From a virus: a stretch of DNA of 64,000 nucleotides. Location of the stretch: IMG/VR virus record IMGVR_UViG_3300027733_000032; one strand, 5' to 3'. Shown one piece after another: positions 55,931 to 64,000 of this stretch (positions within the stretch are counted from its first letter, which is position 1; each line of letters opens with the position of its first letter). A program made the translations under genes and the position numbers. The notes below the pieces were generated by a model that made no database searches, was not told where the DNA came from, and saw only the letters and a list, made by a program, of their open reading frames with translations.

Positions 55931-57235
55931 CTAGACGATGATACCTATGCGCTTGCGCTGTGGCAACCCCAAGCCCGTCAAATGTGTAAAACCTCCAACC
56001 ACGGAGTCAACCTGGTCGTCGTGGTCGCAGGCTTCCGGGAAAGATGAAAGTTCATCCATCCAATCCGTAAGCCAAGTTGCCCGCACGCACCGGACGTTGC
56101 CATTCGCCACTGCTGCGGCAAACGGCATTGCTCGTGTCGTTTTATCACCAGTTGAACGAATTCCCATGAAATCGTAACCACTCAGTACGTATCGGGCATA
56201 TTGGTCGACTAAAGCCTTACCTGATGAGCCTGGCTCCTGCTCCATGCGTATTGCTACAGCGTGACCATCTTCGTATGCCGTTTGAGCAATCAACTGCTCA
56301 ACTTTCTCCCCACGCACTCGCGCTTTCTTTACGTCAAGCACGTAGGTTATGCCTTGGTCAAACAAAACCAAGGTGCCGACTGTCCAGTCTGGATTGGGGT
56401 TGCTGTGTGAAGGCTCTGTGGCAGCAAGGTCCCAGAATCGTACAGCCCTGGCGGACGTGGTAATTTTTGGCATATCCTCGTTGTCGATAATTACTATATT
56501 TTCACGGTCAAACATCGACCCAAGTGTGGTTGCCCACCAGTCACCATCTTCTAGGCGCTTTCGTTCCACTGGGTCCAATGCTTGAAGTGCGGCGCGATAG
56601 GAGTCAGCGTCAATTCCGGGGTTGTCGGTCAGTTTTGATGGGACGAATATTCTACCCTTGTCATGCCCTTCAACGATAAAACGTTGCCGAACCCAGTTAG
56701 GCGCAGGGTTGCATGCTGAACGCATTCTCAATGGGACTTGGGATAGTGGTCCAGATACTGGTCGACGGAGACGAGAGAACATGTATCGATAATCATTTTC
56801 TCGTATTTCCGTAACTTCGTCCATCCCAATAAATTGGAATTCGGCACCTTTGTAGCGCAGGTAGTCTTGTTGATTGTTGAGATAACCAAAAGAAATTCTA
56901 GCGCCCGACGGGAATACTGCCGTATAGTTATTCGCGTTCCAGCGAACGTCATCATATGGGGCCATCCAGTTAATAAACCGGTCCATGATGGCTCCAGGGA
57001 GAGCAAGGTCGGCATACGTACGGCGGAAAATGATTGCTGAATAATTAGGTATATCTACATACTGAAGAGCGGACATAAGGAGTGCGGACGACTTGCCCCC
57101 GCCTGCTGCTCCGCCAAATAGGGCTTCTAGTGAGTAGGTGCGCAGGAAAACCTTTTGAGTCATTGATGCTTCTTCTGGGCAGAAAGGCGGCAGTTTTGGC
57201 TGCAAAAAAGCAAGTACACTATTCCAATCTGTCAT
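55931..57235 (-). CDS. terL: Terminase large subunit
   Basis: LFGGAAGGGKS (Walker A), FIGMDE (Walker B), RSACNP, RFWDLAA, DHDDQVDS nuclease motif. Confidence 0.9.
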   Translation of the reverse strand: MTDWNSVLAFLQPKLPPFCPEEASMTQKVFLRTYSLEALFGGAAGGGKSSALLMSALQYVDIPNYSAIIFRRTYADLALPGAIMDRFINWMAPYDDVRWNANNYTAVFPSGARISFGYLNNQQDYLRYKGAEFQFIGMDEVTEIRENDYRYMFSRLRRPVSGPLSQVPLRMRSACNPAPNWVRQRFIVEGHDKGRIFVPSKLTDNPGIDADSYRAALQALDPVERKRLEDGDWWATTLGSMFDRENIVIIDNEDMPKITTSARAVRFWDLAATEPSHSNPNPDWTVGTLVLFDQGITYVLDVKKARVRGEKVEQLIAQTAYEDGHAVAIRMEQEPGSSGKALVDQYARYVLSGYDFMGIRSTGDKTTRAMPFAAAVANGNVRCVRATWLTDWMDELSSFPEACDHDDQVDSVVGGFTHLTGLGLPQRKRIGIIV

Positions 57236-57527: not shown

Positions 57528-59558
57528 ATGGCATGGAATAAGACAGAAACAAAATCACTCATCCCTGGTCCGACTAGGGCCATTCTTGGGCCTGGTGCTC
57601 CGATTGCACAAAACCCATCCTTTGAAGGCAAGGGATACCGTGACCCGTGGGACATTGAACGTGCCTACAAAGAGGGAATGCAGAAAGTTACTTGGGTTTC
57701 CCGTTGCATTGACGCAATTGCCGGGAATCAGGCACGCCTTCCAATTATTCTTCGTAAGAACAACTCTCCTGATGGCCAGATTGTAAGCAAGGGCAGGAGC
57801 GGGAAGTCAACAATATTAGACCTCTTAAATACCAAGTCCAATATTGGTGAAAATTCATACATTTTTAGGTACAGAATGTCATCTCAGATTTTGCTGGGAA
57901 CTCGTGGTGCCTTTATTGAAAAAGTGCGTGGGCGAGATGGTGGGATTATTGGACTAAACCTGCTCCCGCCGCAGCATACAAGCCCTATTCCCGACCCTAA
58001 AACTTTTGTTTCTGGATACGAAGTCCTTATGCCGAATGGCGACAAGGTAATCATGAAACCTCAGGACGTATGCTGGATTCGTAGGCCACACCCAATTGAC
58101 CCGTATCTTTCCTTGACTCCAATGGAATCTGCTGGTGTTGCCATTGAAATTGAAAACTTAGCCAAACTATATAACCGCAACTTCCTTCTCAATGACGGTA
58201 GACCCGGTGGGCTTCTTGTTCTTCGTGGAGAGATTGACGATGATGATAAAGAAGAATTGAGAAGTCGATTCAGAGGAAATATTGGACGAGTTGGCTCAAC
58301 TACGGTAGTTAGTGCGGATGATGGCGTTGATTTCGTGGATACCTCATCAAGCCCAAGAGATGCCGCCTATATCCAAATGCGTCAAATTACAAAAGAGGAA
58401 ATTCTTGCCTCTTTCGGAGTCCCCGAATCAGTCATTGGCAACGCCTCTGGCAGAACTTTCAGCAATGCGAGTGAAGAAATCCGTGTTTTCTGGAATGAAA
58501 CGATGGGGCCACACTTGGAAATTCTTGCCAGAGCACTCGACGAACTAGACGATGACCATTACGTCGATTTTGACACTTCGTCTGTCCCTGTTTTGATTAT
58601 GGCCAAACAAGAGGTTGAGCGTTATAGCCTAGAAGAATTCAGAAGCGGAATGATAAGTCTAAACGAATATAGGACTGTGACTGGCAGGGAAAAAGTTGAG
58701 TCAGAACTGGCCGACAGCCTCCTAATGAACCCCAACCTGACCCCAATCGGCAATACGGAAAAGCCCATGGCCCCACCACAGCAGGGTATGCCCATGCCGG
58801 GGGCACAGCCAGGAATGCCGCCGGGAATGCCGGGAATGCCACCAGAAGCAGCAGGAATGCCCCCAGGGGCGCCAGATGCAAATACGATGAGCGGTGCACT
58901 TGCCATGGAGCAAGCCGGGGGAATGGCCACTCCAGGAGGCGCTCCTGCGATACCCCCAGAGATGACTGGAGGCCCTGCGGCTGCCGGTCCGGGAGCGTTC
59001 GGTCAAATGTCCATGAATCCTGCGGAAATGCAGTTCAAAGAAGACATTAGTGAAGTTTCGCTCAATCGCTGGACCGAGATATTAGATAGAAGTCTCGAAC
59101 GAGTTATGGAGCGTAGTCAGCGTGTTGTTTTAGAAAAATTGAGTGGTCAAAAATCAAAGAAATCCCTAGCCCAGGGTGTTCTTGACATAAATTCAATTCT
59201 TCAAACCGATGTTTGGACCAGACAGATGGACGAGGACATTCGACCCGTTCTGTCTGCCATTATAAAAGACTCAAAAATCAATCATGCGGAGAAGTGGGCA
59301 ATGTATACGCCCCCCACAAACGAAGAAACTGCCGTAAACATAGATGCTCAAATGGGAAGAATAAAATCCCTTTATGATTCCTGCGTAGCAACACTTTCAG
59401 AATCTATATTCAACTCTTACGGGATAAGTAGTGATGATGAGCGGTATACCGCTTTACGGACGTCTGTTAATACCGTCTTTACGGACATGTTAGCCAACCA
59501 GCGTCCACGCATTGCTTCCTCAGAGGCAAAACGCGCATGGGAATTCTGCCGCCCATAA
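57528..59558 (+). CDS. Portal protein (HK97 family) with Pro/Gly/Met-rich insert and C-terminal extension
   Basis: WVSRCIDAIA..A.LP, LLNTKSN, NG.PGGLL, I..SFGVP..VIG..S..TFSNA. Confidence 0.9.
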   Translation: MAWNKTETKSLIPGPTRAILGPGAPIAQNPSFEGKGYRDPWDIERAYKEGMQKVTWVSRCIDAIAGNQARLPIILRKNNSPDGQIVSKGRSGKSTILDLLNTKSNIGENSYIFRYRMSSQILLGTRGAFIEKVRGRDGGIIGLNLLPPQHTSPIPDPKTFVSGYEVLMPNGDKVIMKPQDVCWIRRPHPIDPYLSLTPMESAGVAIEIENLAKLYNRNFLLNDGRPGGLLVLRGEIDDDDKEELRSRFRGNIGRVGSTTVVSADDGVDFVDTSSSPRDAAYIQMRQITKEEILASFGVPESVIGNASGRTFSNASEEIRVFWNETMGPHLEILARALDELDDDHYVDFDTSSVPVLIMAKQEVERYSLEEFRSGMISLNEYRTVTGREKVESELADSLLMNPNLTPIGNTEKPMAPPQQGMPMPGAQPGMPPGMPGMPPEAAGMPPGAPDANTMSGALAMEQAGGMATPGGAPAIPPEMTGGPAAAGPGAFGQMSMNPAEMQFKEDISEVSLNRWTEILDRSLERVMERSQRVVLEKLSGQKSKKSLAQGVLDINSILQTDVWTRQMDEDIRPVLSAIIKDSKINHAEKWAMYTPPTNEETAVNIDAQMGRIKSLYDSCVATLSESIFNSYGISSDDERYTALRTSVNTVFTDMLANQRPRIASSEAKRAWEFCRP

Positions 59559-59682: not shown

Positions 59683-61143
59683 ATGTCGCAAAATACCACG
59701 TCAGATATCAATTTCAAGGCACTTAATGGGCAGTTCAATATTGATGAGGCCCAAGGAATCGTCGAATGTTTTGTTGCTGCTATTGGCAACAAGGACAGCG
59801 TAGGCGACGTAATTGTCTCGGGGGCGTTTAATGAAAGTCTCAAGCGTCGCAAGCCTCGCGTAGTTTGGGGACACAGTTGGAATGACCCCATCGGTAAGGT
59901 CATCGAGATTTACGAAGTACCCGCAAACGACCCGCGACTGCCAGCAAAGATGAAGCAGGCCGGAGTTGGTGGAGTTTATGCACGCGTTCAGTTTAATCTC
60001 GCAACTGAAAAAGGAAGAGAAGCATTCTCTAGCGTTGCATTCTTTGGTCCAGAACAAGAATGGTCAATTGGCTACAAGACACTCAATGCCACTTTCGACC
60101 CAAATGTACAGGCTAACATTTTAAGAGAAGTCGAACTTTATGAAGTAAGTCCTGTTCTCCATGGTGCCAATCAGTTGACCGCCACCATCTCCGTAAAGAG
60201 CGAAGAGGGTGAAAAGTGTGGCGTTCCAATGGGTATGCCAAATTCCCCTCATATGTACGGTGGTACCCCTGCCCCCTCTGCAATACCACGGATTGTCTCC
60301 GTTGATGCCAACAGGCTTTCTCCAATACGAGTCATTAGTGGAGTTGCCCAGCAGGCCCGACCCGACCATAGCAATAATTCACGTGAAGATATTTTTGGTG
60401 AAGGAGAGGCGAGAACACTTTCGGATGAAGCACGGAATATGCTTGCCATGGAATTAATGACGCGTTCCCGTGCGAATCTTGATGTTGTTTATGCAACAGA
60501 AAATTCCGTAGTATTCAACCGCGAGGTTGGGCAAGGAAACCACATTACATACCGTCTTTCGTATTACAGAGACCCGGATAGTGGCGAATATATGTTTGGC
60601 AAGCCCGAAAAAATGGGCAGTCATAGCGATGACAGTAGAATTGCCTCGCCAACCGTAGTCCCATCACAGATGCCTTCGATGCCAATGATGGTCAAACCAC
60701 AGGCCGTCAATCCGTACTCGATGAGCGGAATGCCTTCTGCTGTTCCCCAGATGGGTAATTATGGAATGGAAAAGTCACTTGATTTTGGCGCAGATACAGC
60801 GGCAGATTTTGTTCTTTCAGGAATTCAAAACGGCTCTATTTCTTCGTCTACCGGAAATGAAAAAATTGACGCAGTTATTGACATTCTCAAGGGAATGACC
60901 GGGAAGTCGGATAATCAGCAGGTATTTACCATTGCGTGTGAACCACATGAGGCTTTCTATATTAAGTCAGCAATCGACCCGGTTCTCGAATACCACCGCC
61001 TTGATGTAGAAATCGACGAATACGGTATTCATGTCGTCAATGGGCTATCCACTGAATCAATTAGCGCATTAACCAAGGCCGCAGAATCTATCGAAACTAT
61101 CACCACTAAGGCTGGTGGTTCAAAAAAATACAAGCGCCCTTAG
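59683..61143 (+). CDS. Prohead maturation protease (HK97 family) with C-terminal extension
   Basis: IGNKDSVGDVIVSGAF, VVWGHSWNDPIGK (His), WSIGY (Ser), LYEVSPVLHGAN; likely start ATG 59683 with SD AGGAG. Confidence 0.9.
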   Translation: MSQNTTSDINFKALNGQFNIDEAQGIVECFVAAIGNKDSVGDVIVSGAFNESLKRRKPRVVWGHSWNDPIGKVIEIYEVPANDPRLPAKMKQAGVGGVYARVQFNLATEKGREAFSSVAFFGPEQEWSIGYKTLNATFDPNVQANILREVELYEVSPVLHGANQLTATISVKSEEGEKCGVPMGMPNSPHMYGGTPAPSAIPRIVSVDANRLSPIRVISGVAQQARPDHSNNSREDIFGEGEARTLSDEARNMLAMELMTRSRANLDVVYATENSVVFNREVGQGNHITYRLSYYRDPDSGEYMFGKPEKMGSHSDDSRIASPTVVPSQMPSMPMMVKPQAVNPYSMSGMPSAVPQMGNYGMEKSLDFGADTAADFVLSGIQNGSISSSTGNEKIDAVIDILKGMTGKSDNQQVFTIACEPHEAFYIKSAIDPVLEYHRLDVEIDEYGIHVVNGLSTESISALTKAAESIETITTKAGGSKKYKRP

Positions 61144-64000
61144 TTTTCGGCCTTGGGTTAAGTCTCGAATCTAAGGGCCTAGGGCCAAAAATTGGAACAC
61201 GACTTAGTGGTGGGCTTCGTGCAGCACCGCCAGGAATGTCATTTGTTGACATAACAGGAACCGTTGACGCAGATACAGACGGAATAGTGTTTGAAGGCAA
61301 GCCCGGTCTTGAACGACCCATAATCCCTAGATTCCTTGTACCTAAGAATCTTGCTCGCAAAATTTCTTCACTCACCGAAGGCGACGCCCTAGAAATAGAA
61401 AAGCAACGACGCAGTGGTGACGGCAATATTTCCTTTGACGAAACAAAACTTCGCTCAATTATTGAAAAAATTGGCGGAGACGTCAACTCCTTGAAGCCCG
61501 TGGACGATACAGCCGAAACCGGCATGCGTAGTGCGAACGCCTCAGACGGCCCGGATTTCCAAGAACCACCGATTGCCGATGTACCAGAACAGTTTGATGG
61601 TTTCTGGACCCCAGACGAAGAACAATTGCGCGACCTAGATAAGCGTTCTGGTCGCAGGACACCTCCTCCTCCTCCTGCCAATATCGGGCAGAAGTATGTA
61701 ATTTCACGGGATGATGATGGCGTTTATTTTGCGGAGAATATTTCAGCAGAAGATGTTTGGTCGCTTCGTTCCGGTGCATCAAAAGCGCCGAAGCGTCCTT
61801 TCTTTGCCCCACGTGGAGGCGGGAATAAGCCAGATAACGGCGAAGGTTATTACTTCTCTACAAACGGAAAACGCTATTGGGGCAAGTATGGCGCAGCGGG
61901 AGCGTTGGTCCGTCGTAAAAATTCAGACGGAGAATACGAATATTTTCTAGCGAGACGCGCTGATGGTATGTCGGTCGGTGGTGGCAAGTGGTCATTCCCT
62001 GGTGGGGCACACAAAGATAAAGAAAATTCAAAACTTCCAGGTGCTACTGCGATTGAAGAATTTGGCGAAGAGGTTGGTGGAGATATCTCTACACTCAAAC
62101 CAATTCACACCTACACAGACCAGGTTGCCCCTGACTGGAAATACGACACTTACGTGTTTGAGGTTGGGCCGGATGAACTGAATGACTTACGGTCGATGGA
62201 CGGCGAAAGCACTGATACGGGTTGGTTTACGGCATCTGACATTATACAAATGGCAGAAGACGACAAACTTCTAGAGTCATTCAAACGTTCAGCAAAAGAA
62301 GTATTTGCTCTTTCTGGAGATGAAGTCAAGGGCAATAAAACTACAAGAAAAATTAAAAAAACATTGAAGAAAATTAGTGGCGAAAAAGTTACTTCTTGGC
62401 AAGAAAAGATAAAAAAATACGAACCAATTGAACCAGAAGATTATTTTGATATCAATAATGAAATGCAGTCTGATTTTGGTATTTCTATTGGCCAAGTGAT
62501 GCAGGATGAATACGATGAAGGCGCATCTATTAAGGAGATTGCGGAAAACTGGGGAATTTCAGCCCATGAAGTTGAAAAATTGCTTAGTGAAAATAAAAAG
62601 GGCGGAATGTCATCAACTTCCGTCGGACAAATCATGCAGGATGAATACGACGAGGGTGCGTCAATAAAAGAAATTGCAGAAAATTGGGATATAACGACTC
62701 AAGAAGTTGAAGATTTTATGAGTCGACCACCTTCTGTCGGGATGTCATCTGCCAAAACGAATAGAGATTCACGAGGGCGCGACGCAACGCCAGCAAAAAA
62801 GAAAAAATTAGACTCCGTTATAGATTTTGTTATAGACAAAATTAGTCCAGTCACAGTAATCCAAGCATATATAGATTTTTCTGATAGACGACAGGAAAAA
62901 AAGAATCCAAGCCTTACGGCTGAACGTCTTGCAAGAGAAGAAAAAATGAAGTCAGGAGTCGATAAAGCAGGCAAATCAGGCATATCTATTGCTACAAAAA
63001 TGGCATTACCAGAGTACAAGACGCTTATGGAGAAAGTTTCCCTAAATGGGGAGACTGTTCTGGCAAGTACATCAGCAAGAACTGCCGAAGTTCAAAAACT
63101 TATCGACAATTTGGCATCAAAAGTTGATGGTGATTTGGATGGAATGGATTTCTCCAAAGGAAACTTCTCTGGCATTGATTTTAAAAATTACTCATTACGT
63201 AACGCAAGTTTCTTTGGCTCCACTCTTGATAAATCTAATTTTTCTGGATGCATTATTGACAGCGCCACTTTTGAAGATGCTTCTTTAATTGATGCAAATT
63301 TAAGCAAGATAAGTCAAGCATGGCGCATCGATTTCTCGGGAGCGAATCTAACAAATGCAGATTTAACCAAACTCAATATGCACTCCGCTCTATTGAACGA
63401 AACAAACCTTGAAGGGGCAAAACTTGATGGAGTAAATCTAATCATGGCTGACATTAGGGATATGGATTTCTCTAACGCTCGAAGCATGAGGGGTGTCTTG
63501 CTAGAAGAAGTACAGGGAGAAGGTGCAAACTTTGGTGGTCTCGATATGACCAACTCATCCTTTGTCTCCGCAAACTTGACAAACACTAATTTTAGTAATG
63601 CAAATTTAACTCGTTCAGATTTAAGAAACGCAAAACTGGATAAGGCTGATTTTAGTGGCGCAAACATGGAGGGTATTGAACTAGAAAAACCAGGTTTATC
63701 TCCATCCAGCATGAAAGAAACAAAATTTGACAATATGCCGACCAAGGGCGAAGAGGGCACCCCTTCGGGTATGAGTTCCCTTACGCGTCCCTATCGTGAT
63801 ACCAGTGATGAAGAGTTAAAGGCCCTGTACGAAAAATATTTACGTTACCTAGGCGGCCCTGGGGACAAGGGTGACAGCGATTTTACATACATGCGACGGT
63901 CAAAAGAATATGACAAAATTAAGAAAGAAATTGCTCGGCGTGAGAAAGATGGCAAAAAACCAAGCAAGGGAATGAGTTCTGAAACAAAGTTGCCAGGAAA
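61110..64000 (+). CDS. Giant multidomain protein in the -1 frame of the protease (NUDIX, 2x HTH, pentapeptide repeats; GM[SR]S linkers), runs off the window
   Basis: Manually translated: no stop from 61110 to 64000; RYWGKYGAAG...PGG...EEFGEEVG NUDIX; duplicated DEYDEGASIKEIAENW HTH; A(D/N)LxxA pentapeptide array. Confidence 0.85.
61122..61178 (+). promoter_or_regulatory. Predicted programmed -1 ribosomal frameshift signal
   Basis: In-frame A-AAA-AAA (61122-61128), 7-nt spacer, stem GCCCTTAG (61136-43) / CTAAGGGC (61171-78). Confidence 0.7.

Follow-up and report, generated by a model that had tools for sequence, protein, structure and literature searches.

The window analyzed here is the whole of a 64,000-nucleotide (nt) stretch of viral DNA, IMG/VR virus record IMGVR_UViG_3300027733_000032, from an uncultured phage of fresh water, and the subject is the junction between its prohead protease-scaffold gene and a giant downstream reading frame. 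Comparison with related loci indicates that a programmed -1 ribosomal frameshift very probably makes a protease-cargo fusion at this junction, as the first-pass annotation of the DNA had proposed. In-frame relatives align with the window across the junction, a slippery heptamer followed by a hairpin is present in 31 of 31 distinct junctions, and the sequence beyond the heptamer bears a coding signature in the -1 frame only. Sequence and comparison thus support the signal itself, its conservation, and translation of the cargo frame from the junction onward.

Two proteins would be produced from one start codon, ATG 59683. Most ribosomes would stop at TAG 61141 and release the short form S of 486 amino acids (aa). 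A fraction would pause on A_AAA_AAA against a hairpin located 7 nt downstream, both Lys-tRNAs would slip back by one base, and reading would continue in the -1 frame through ...GGSKK-IQAPLVF..., the junction peptide predicted for a tandem slip. The long form L would consist of the protease and the giant cargo open reading frame (ORF), the cargo being probably about 3,400 aa long, and the S:L ratio would be set by the frameshift efficiency. As a presumed minority product, L may enter the prohead through its protease-scaffold part, a step suggested by the fact that this part corresponds to a complete head-assembly protein in ordinary relatives. The protease would then cut the cargo at G-M-[S/R]-S linkers into a NUDIX hydrolase, helix-turn-helix (HTH) units, a pentapeptide-repeat domain, and others, and the freed modules would be ejected into the host together with the DNA. 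Most relatives appear to use the reverse arrangement, in which L would come from the zero frame and S from a -1 shift onto a stop codon that usually lies one codon further on.

The Slippery Site and the Downstream Hairpin

The elements of the junction are the following, in window coordinates.

59683..61143, + strand: prohead protease-scaffold gene, short product S, 486 aa, with normal termination at TAG 61141-61143
61114..61119, + strand: GGTGGT, a Shine-Dalgarno (SD)-like element 2 nt upstream of the heptamer
61122..61128, + strand: slippery heptamer A_AAA_AAA in the zero frame of the protease, of the form X_XXY_YYZ
61129..61135, + strand: 7-nt spacer; the 5' arm that follows it begins with GCCC at one alignment column in all three lineages of the type A layout (defined below)
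61136..61178, + strand: putative stimulatory hairpin, with an 8-bp outer stem and inner pairs, that holds the zero-frame stop
61179..61186, + strand: possible 3' arm of a second stem, complementary to 61149-61156, an H-type pseudoknot candidate
61128..64000, + strand: -1 frame cargo ORF, putative long product L as an extension of the protease, running off the window

The 3' end of the protease gene reads TCA AAA AAA TAC AAG CGC CCT TAG, and reading it in the protease frame confirms that the seven A residues form an in-frame slippery heptamer. The outer stem pairs GCCCTTAG (61136-61143) with CTAAGGGC (61171-61178), and the stop codon lies inside its 5' arm, in agreement with the first-pass description of an 8-bp stem that buries the stop. 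The spacing of 7 nt falls within the 5-9 nt at which a stable structure is expected downstream of a frameshift site, and the suggested extension of the stem by TTCGG/TCGAA is present in the minimum-free-energy fold. Positions 61129-61180 fold at -18.4 kcal/mol compared with -12.0 ± 2.5 for dinucleotide shuffles (z = -2.5; 2 of 200 shuffles were as good). Similarly, the 50 nt located 3' of the heptamer reach -19.1 compared with -8.2 ± 3.5 for 290 windows taken within ±1.5 kb, 0.3% of which are equally stable. The downstream hairpin therefore exceeds chance by either measure.

The complementarity behind a second stem, which had been suggested as a possible pseudoknot, is also present; GGCCTTGG (61149-56) can pair with CTAGGGCC (61179-86) over 8 bp, two of them G-U. 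However, this pairing is not kept intact in the relative L002, where a T at the equivalent of 61181 breaks one pair with no compensating change. An Rfam scan at the site matched no family, and returned one sub-threshold chance match to a CRISPR repeat at 61272-61297.

Two Layouts of the Junction among Relatives

A scan of IMG/VR with the protease recovered 29 full-length relatives with identities of 44-93%, and a further 47 loci came from metagenomes scanned with an alignment of the region around the junction. The junctions were compared in a set of 63 protease-bearing related loci, which contain 31 distinct junctions (7 type A and 24 type B). A zero-frame A_AAA_AAA or G_GGA_AAA is present at the junction in 63 of the 63 loci.

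In the type A layout the protease frame ends 0-4 codons past the heptamer and the -1 frame is open; where a locus is long enough to reveal it (L001-L003), this frame extends over more than 2,000 codons. The members of this type are the window, L001/L061/L062, L002, L063, L003, L065/L067, and L070. All of the remaining relatives have the type B layout, in which protease and giant share one frame and a stop closes the -1 frame after 1, 4, or 9 codons, usually one codon past the heptamer. Their single ORFs reach 3,658 aa (L052) and 4,421 aa (L053), and are about 1,170-1,260 aa in L019-L029.

The heptamer keeps its distance to a conserved motif downstream, which is 145-151 nt away in one superclade and 76 nt away in the other. 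Because its position is fixed throughout the 63 loci, the short product ends at almost the same place in every lineage: in nearly all of them it finishes with GG-x-KK or GGGK plus at most a few residues, with either frame supplying the stop.

In a maximum-likelihood tree of the protease-scaffold part, the seven distinct type A sequences form one clade (support 99/95) that is nested among the type B sequences, and the path from the window to L003 and L065 amounts to about 0.8-0.9 changes per site. This topology fits a single switch of polarity followed by long maintenance, that is, a working arrangement and not a recent frameshift lesion.

A Cargo Frame without a Start of Its Own

As the first-pass annotation had read it, the -1 frame is closed by TAA at 61107-61109 and then open from 61110 to the end of the window, a total of 963 codons. 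No ATG, GTG, or TTG occurs in this frame between 61110 and its first ATG, at 61236, and this ATG has AGGA abutting it at a spacing of 0, which leaves no usable SD spacing. The equivalent codon is TTA (Leu) in L003. The predicted -1 product of the window aligns with in-frame relatives straight across the junction, and the conserved residues K.LG.KIG.RL.GGLRAAP.G are located 5' of the first ATG of the window. In the closest relative, which is 93% identical, the frame continues for at least 2,886 aa after the equivalent of this ATG.

Codon changes between the window and L003 were counted over the 36 codons from the heptamer to the first ATG, and are given here as synonymous/nonsynonymous.

Frame -1 (giant): 13/17 over 36 codons; 13/6 over codons 16-36
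Zero frame (protease): 3/30 over 36 codons; 0/19 over codons 16-36
Frame +1: 2/30 over 36 codons; 2/18 over codons 16-36

The window compared with L065 behaves in the same way. The counts indicate that only in the -1 frame do the 36 codons ahead of the first ATG change as a coding sequence does, so that the downstream ORF appears to be coding from the overlap onward and to have no start of its own. The synonymous excess in this frame alone, together with the TTA of L003, therefore excludes an untranslated spacer.

The same two observations argue strongly against independent initiation at 61236, the alternative in which the giant is made from that ATG, or by termination-reinitiation close to the stop of the protease, and the heptamer and hairpin are relics of an in-frame ancestor. 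Some features would suit such a route, as ATG 61236 is retained by most members of type A, a TTG lies 2 nt past the stop of L003, and the leader TTG of L003, L065, and L070 is preceded by AGGAGG or AGGTGG. However, the codons ahead of the ATG align with in-frame relatives as protein-coding sequence, the window has no canonical start there, and the heptamer and hairpin have been maintained across a deep clade, which together make this route very unlikely.

Conservation of the Recoding Signal

The first-pass annotation looked to related phages for conservation of the signal, and each of the 31 distinct junctions retains a heptamer and a hairpin. The hairpin follows the heptamer by about 5-7 nt in nearly every lineage, with a stem whose sequence differs by lineage, and for the median of the 31 junctions a fraction of 0.003 of the local background windows folds equally well. 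Among the three type A lineages, the 3' arm is distant in the clade of the window and nearby in L003 and L065, where it has different inner pairs.

For covariation in the stem, which the same comparison was to show, the picture is mixed. Pairing of an 8-bp stem in the short-ORF superclade reaches 94% of cells, compared with only 34-60% in slid controls, and one of the pairs alternates between G-C (9 sequences) and C-G (8 sequences); the clade of the window itself provides no such changes.

Selection on the nucleotides is also suggested by codon usage. In a codon-level alignment of the short-ORF superclade, synonymous change is almost abolished from codon -3 to codon +8 around the heptamer. Invariant codons near the heptamer include AAA (16/16) and CGC (16/16), whereas three or four different codons are used for Gly, Arg, and Pro residues that are just as conserved elsewhere. 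The two Gly codons before the heptamer are GGT in 16/16 and 15/16 sequences, while other conserved Gly codons vary freely. They belong to the SD-like element, whose GGTGG is invariant in junction alignments A2 and A3 and at this position in all relatives, third positions included, and is complementary to the 3' end of 16S rRNA. This pattern indicates selection on the junction signal itself, in excess of any constraint from the protein.

Length of the A Run and the Nature of the Slippage

The seven-A run of the window raises the question of its accuracy, because homopolymers are error-prone; a true run of eight A residues would give a simple in-frame fusion, and the split gene might otherwise be a dead one. 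The window shares A7 with four further distinct IMG sequences from its own clade (L001, L002, L063, and L062). Run length in other samples was judged from Logan contigs in place of raw reads, and the contigs of three other studies (X5, X6, and X7) cross A7 without an indel while differing at 16 or fewer other positions. In L003 the run is A8 and A9 would be needed to be in frame. These observations, and the length over which the -1 frame stays open in L001-L003, render an assembly or sequencing error, or a dead gene, extremely improbable.

A second question is whether the slippage is that of the ribosome or that of RNA polymerase. By transcriptional slippage, the polymerase would add one A on the A7 run, and the same fusion would be made from an in-frame mRNA. 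Efficient polymerase slippage usually needs nine or more A residues, as in Thermus dnaX and insertion sequence (IS) elements, and four are too short for it. The run of the window, at seven A residues (eight in L003), is below this length of about nine or more A/T, and its hairpin lies downstream of the run, whereas the hairpins that stimulate transcriptional slippage lie upstream. Furthermore, many relatives use G_GGA_AAA, with only four A residues, at the same junction. Because these lineages keep the downstream hairpin at the classical frameshift spacing, ribosomal slippage is favored as the mechanism of the family, and transcriptional slippage is considered unlikely as the main route.

Several observations weigh against a ribosomal frameshift or lessen the support for it. 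All three type A lineages carry A7-A8 runs, and none of them has G_GGA_AAA, so that slippage by RNA polymerase could contribute. The stem is invariant in the close clade of the window and hence offers no covariation there; for this reason support for the hairpin is drawn from the differing stems found at the same place in other lineages. The invariant GGTGG is only 2 nt before the heptamer, nearer than in dnaX, where Larsen and co-workers reportedly found in 1994 that 10-14 nt between an SD-like element and the site favors -1 shifting. In type B ORFs, a -1 stop within one codon occurs by chance at 15-22% of positions, and this stop taken alone is modest support. Finally, the X9 run shows A6 in three short, low-depth contigs of a lake metagenome. 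As the same run also carries a 1-nt deletion at 61008 inside the protease, again at low depth, and as A6 would not join the frames, the shorter run is probably indel noise.

The Protease-Scaffold Gene

The gene upstream of the junction encodes a protein with an N-terminal S78 domain followed by a long C-terminal extension. A Pfam profile search matched Peptidase_S78 (PF04586) with 46.9 bits against a cutoff of 21, over residues 31-183 of the 494-aa ORF that begins at TTG 59659, and phrog_80 ("head maturation protease") matches the gene with E = 3e-27. GGAG or AGGA stands about 4-9 nt before the ATG of many other genes in the window, and because an AGGAG placed 4 nt upstream of ATG 59683 fits this rule, the gene model was corrected, with ATG 59683 the most likely start rather than TTG 59659.

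The position of the gene is the one expected for an S78 prohead protease, directly after the portal gene; in the relative G003 the major capsid gene follows downstream. The neighbor that adjoins it in the window is as follows.

57528..59558, + strand: portal protein gene, start of the head module (Pfam Phage_portal, E = 1.1e-45; phrog_2662, E = 6.8e-62)

His64, Ser128, and His160, the candidate catalytic residues of the protease, are invariant in 22 relatives; the protease domain is modeled with low confidence. A search of PDB sequences with the protease gave no match. The AlphaFold model of the short form has a mean pLDDT of 49 and reaches about 75-80 only in two small domains, at about residues 245-315 and 415-475.

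A blastn search of the region against INPHARED phages found no match, and similarity to cultured phages is limited to the protease domain, in actinophages, at about 39% identity. In Gordonia phage GMA6, the homologue with a 39% identical protease domain is 484 aa long and the capsid gene comes directly next, which suggests that the short form S corresponds to a complete, ordinary protease-scaffold protein. The gene order of GMA6 would accordingly be the ordinary layout from which the cargo-bearing family departs. The GMA6 protein itself is Orf19 (L104, KR063280.1 15585-18546), annotated as hypothetical, and consists of a 484-aa S78 protease plus extension.

Cargo Modules, Leader, and Linker Motif

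The cargo begins with a leader and is divided by a short recurring motif.

61164..61508, + strand: shared leader module that opens the cargo and contains the motifs K.LGPKIG.RL.GGLRAAP.GM and D.D.DGIVFEG; it is conserved across in-frame relatives
61521, 62604, 62739, 63768, and 63969 (61521..63980), + strand: five G-M-[S/R]-S linker motifs that lie between modules and are candidate sites of cleavage

In the first 963 aa of the cargo, Pfam identifies after the leader a NUDIX domain, two near-identical HTH units, and a pentapeptide-repeat array; the sets of domains differ among the giants of the relatives. The occurrences of G-M-[S/R]-S compared with those expected from shuffles are as follows.

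First 963 cargo residues of the window: 5 observed, 0.07 expected
L054 giant: 11 observed, 0.14 expected
L052 giant: 15 observed, 0.21 expected
Four other large proteins of the window: 0-1 each, 0.01-0.13 expected

Enrichment in the giants is about 70-fold. Neither the L053 nor the L020 lineage has the motif, which is a good candidate for a cleavage code read by the fused protease. It also recurs in the L102 and L103 giants. The two HTH units stand in tandem at about 62490-62750 (...GQ.MQDEYDEGASIKEIAENW...), with GMSS closing each of them, and look like a recent duplication of a linker-bounded module.

The leader is about 115-130 aa long, and the same leader follows unrelated N-terminal parts of about 200-250 aa in other long genes of related genomes. 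These genes are L058-L060, L064, L066, L068, L069, and L071-L074, in each of which the leader is located at about nt 1300-1630 with the consensus K.LGPK.G.RL..GLR.AP.GM.FVD.TG..DAD.DGIVFEG. One 125-kb contig has a second leader copy 26.5 kb from the protease; none was found within the 64-kb window. The loop D.D.DG.(I/V)F(E/D)G, at 61260-61300 of the window, is invariant across all clades and has no Pfam match; we take its D.D.DG part to resemble a calcium-binding loop of the EF-hand type.

Comparison with Known Systems

The E. coli dnaX gene, which encodes tau and gamma, also has a heptamer of Lys codons (A_AAA_AAG), a hairpin a few nucleotides downstream, an upstream SD-like element, and a long and a short product made from one start. 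The type B relatives share its logic, as their -1 stop usually lies one codon past the heptamer, whereas the polarity is reversed in the clade of the window, where the shift yields the long product. Further differences are that the SD-like element is about 10 nt away in dnaX and 2 nt away here, and that dnaX is a replication gene and not a virion protease-cargo gene.

The nearest functional analogy to the layout of the window would be Gag-Pol or Gag-Pro-Pol of retroviruses and of the yeast L-A totivirus. In those systems, enzymes without their own start are appended to an assembly protein by a -1 shift close to its end, a fixed minority of fusions enters the particle, and the protease of the polyprotein then cuts the fusion. 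They differ in that they belong to eukaryotic RNA viruses, with a coat protein as the carrier and a replicase as the cargo, whereas here the virus is a double-stranded DNA tailed phage, the carrier is the protease-scaffold protein, and the cargo presumably consists of host-directed effectors.

Among phages, the tail assembly chaperone G/GT frameshift, said to have been described by Xu, Hendrix, and Duda in 2004, is likewise a conserved -1 shift in a late gene that gives a minor extended product, and the G_GGA_AAA of the relatives resembles the lambda heptamer G_GGA_AAG. However, it belongs to the tail module, and its extension is small, with no giant cargo. A full-text literature search returned frameshifts only in tail chaperone genes and an IS3-type transposase, and none in a gene for a prohead protease or scaffold.

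Other viruses use nested protease/scaffold genes, such as lambda C/Nu3 and herpesvirus UL26/UL26.5, or, like T4, internal proteins with a capsid-targeting sequence. They address the same problem, namely the ratio of protease-bearing to protease-free protein and the loading of internal proteins that are later trimmed, but do so with internal starts or short targeting peptides, without frameshifting or a covalent cargo-protease fusion.

The cargo can finally be compared with polyvalent proteins, giant strings of unrelated effector domains whose genes lie among those of the head and for which packaging and injection are predicted (Iyer et al. 2017, PMC5512222). Some of them carry an assemblin-like (prohead-type) peptidase, stated to be always C-terminal, and frameshifting is nowhere mentioned for them in that study. 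The cargo of the window fits this class, with several unrelated effector-type domains in one polypeptide among virion genes, and its packaging and delivery are suggested here by the fusion and the gene context. It departs from the class in that the protease-scaffold part is N-terminal and joined through a recoding site.

These comparisons lead to a wider proposal, which is tentative. In a family of freshwater phages of about 150 kb, one recoding switch may set the number of giant effector polyproteins per capsid, in the manner of gag-pol in one clade and of dnaX in the rest. The maturation protease would carry the cargo covalently and cut it at G-M-[S/R]-S, and the leader would mark further giants for the same route. 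If so, phages would use a Gag-Pol strategy for giant effector polyproteins, with a stoichiometry fixed by frameshifting, covalent carriage by an assembly protein, and self-processing, and evolution could turn a single recoding signal from "shift to extend" into "shift to truncate" or the reverse. In annotation, giants without a start would be miscalled from an internal ATG, with the loss of about 36 conserved codons and of the link to the protease. A mutation in the heptamer or the stem would offer a simple handle on cargo dose and on the study of injected polyvalent proteins.

Neighboring Genes and Further Giants

Upstream of the head module, the window encodes the terminase on the opposite strand.

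55931-57235, minus strand: terminase gene

The gene order downstream of the junction can be followed in G003, where the portal gene is succeeded by protease-giant 1 (3,658 aa), a 631-aa ORF, giant 2 (2,723 aa), three mid-sized ORFs, giant 3 (about 2,500 aa), giant 4 (2,281 aa), and the major capsid protein (435 aa; phrog_10, E = 1e-63). Because the giants of G003 are located between the portal and major capsid genes, they belong inside the head module. The possibility that a giant contains the capsid protein was raised by a weak phrog_10 match in the L004 giant (E = 6e-5) and was rejected, as this match is absent when the same protein is scanned at full length (L052) and the capsid protein is a separate 435-aa ORF. 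The four giant ORFs (L052, L102, and L103; contig G003, 7-50 kb) together make up about 33 kb of cargo within the head module of this phage of roughly 150 kb.

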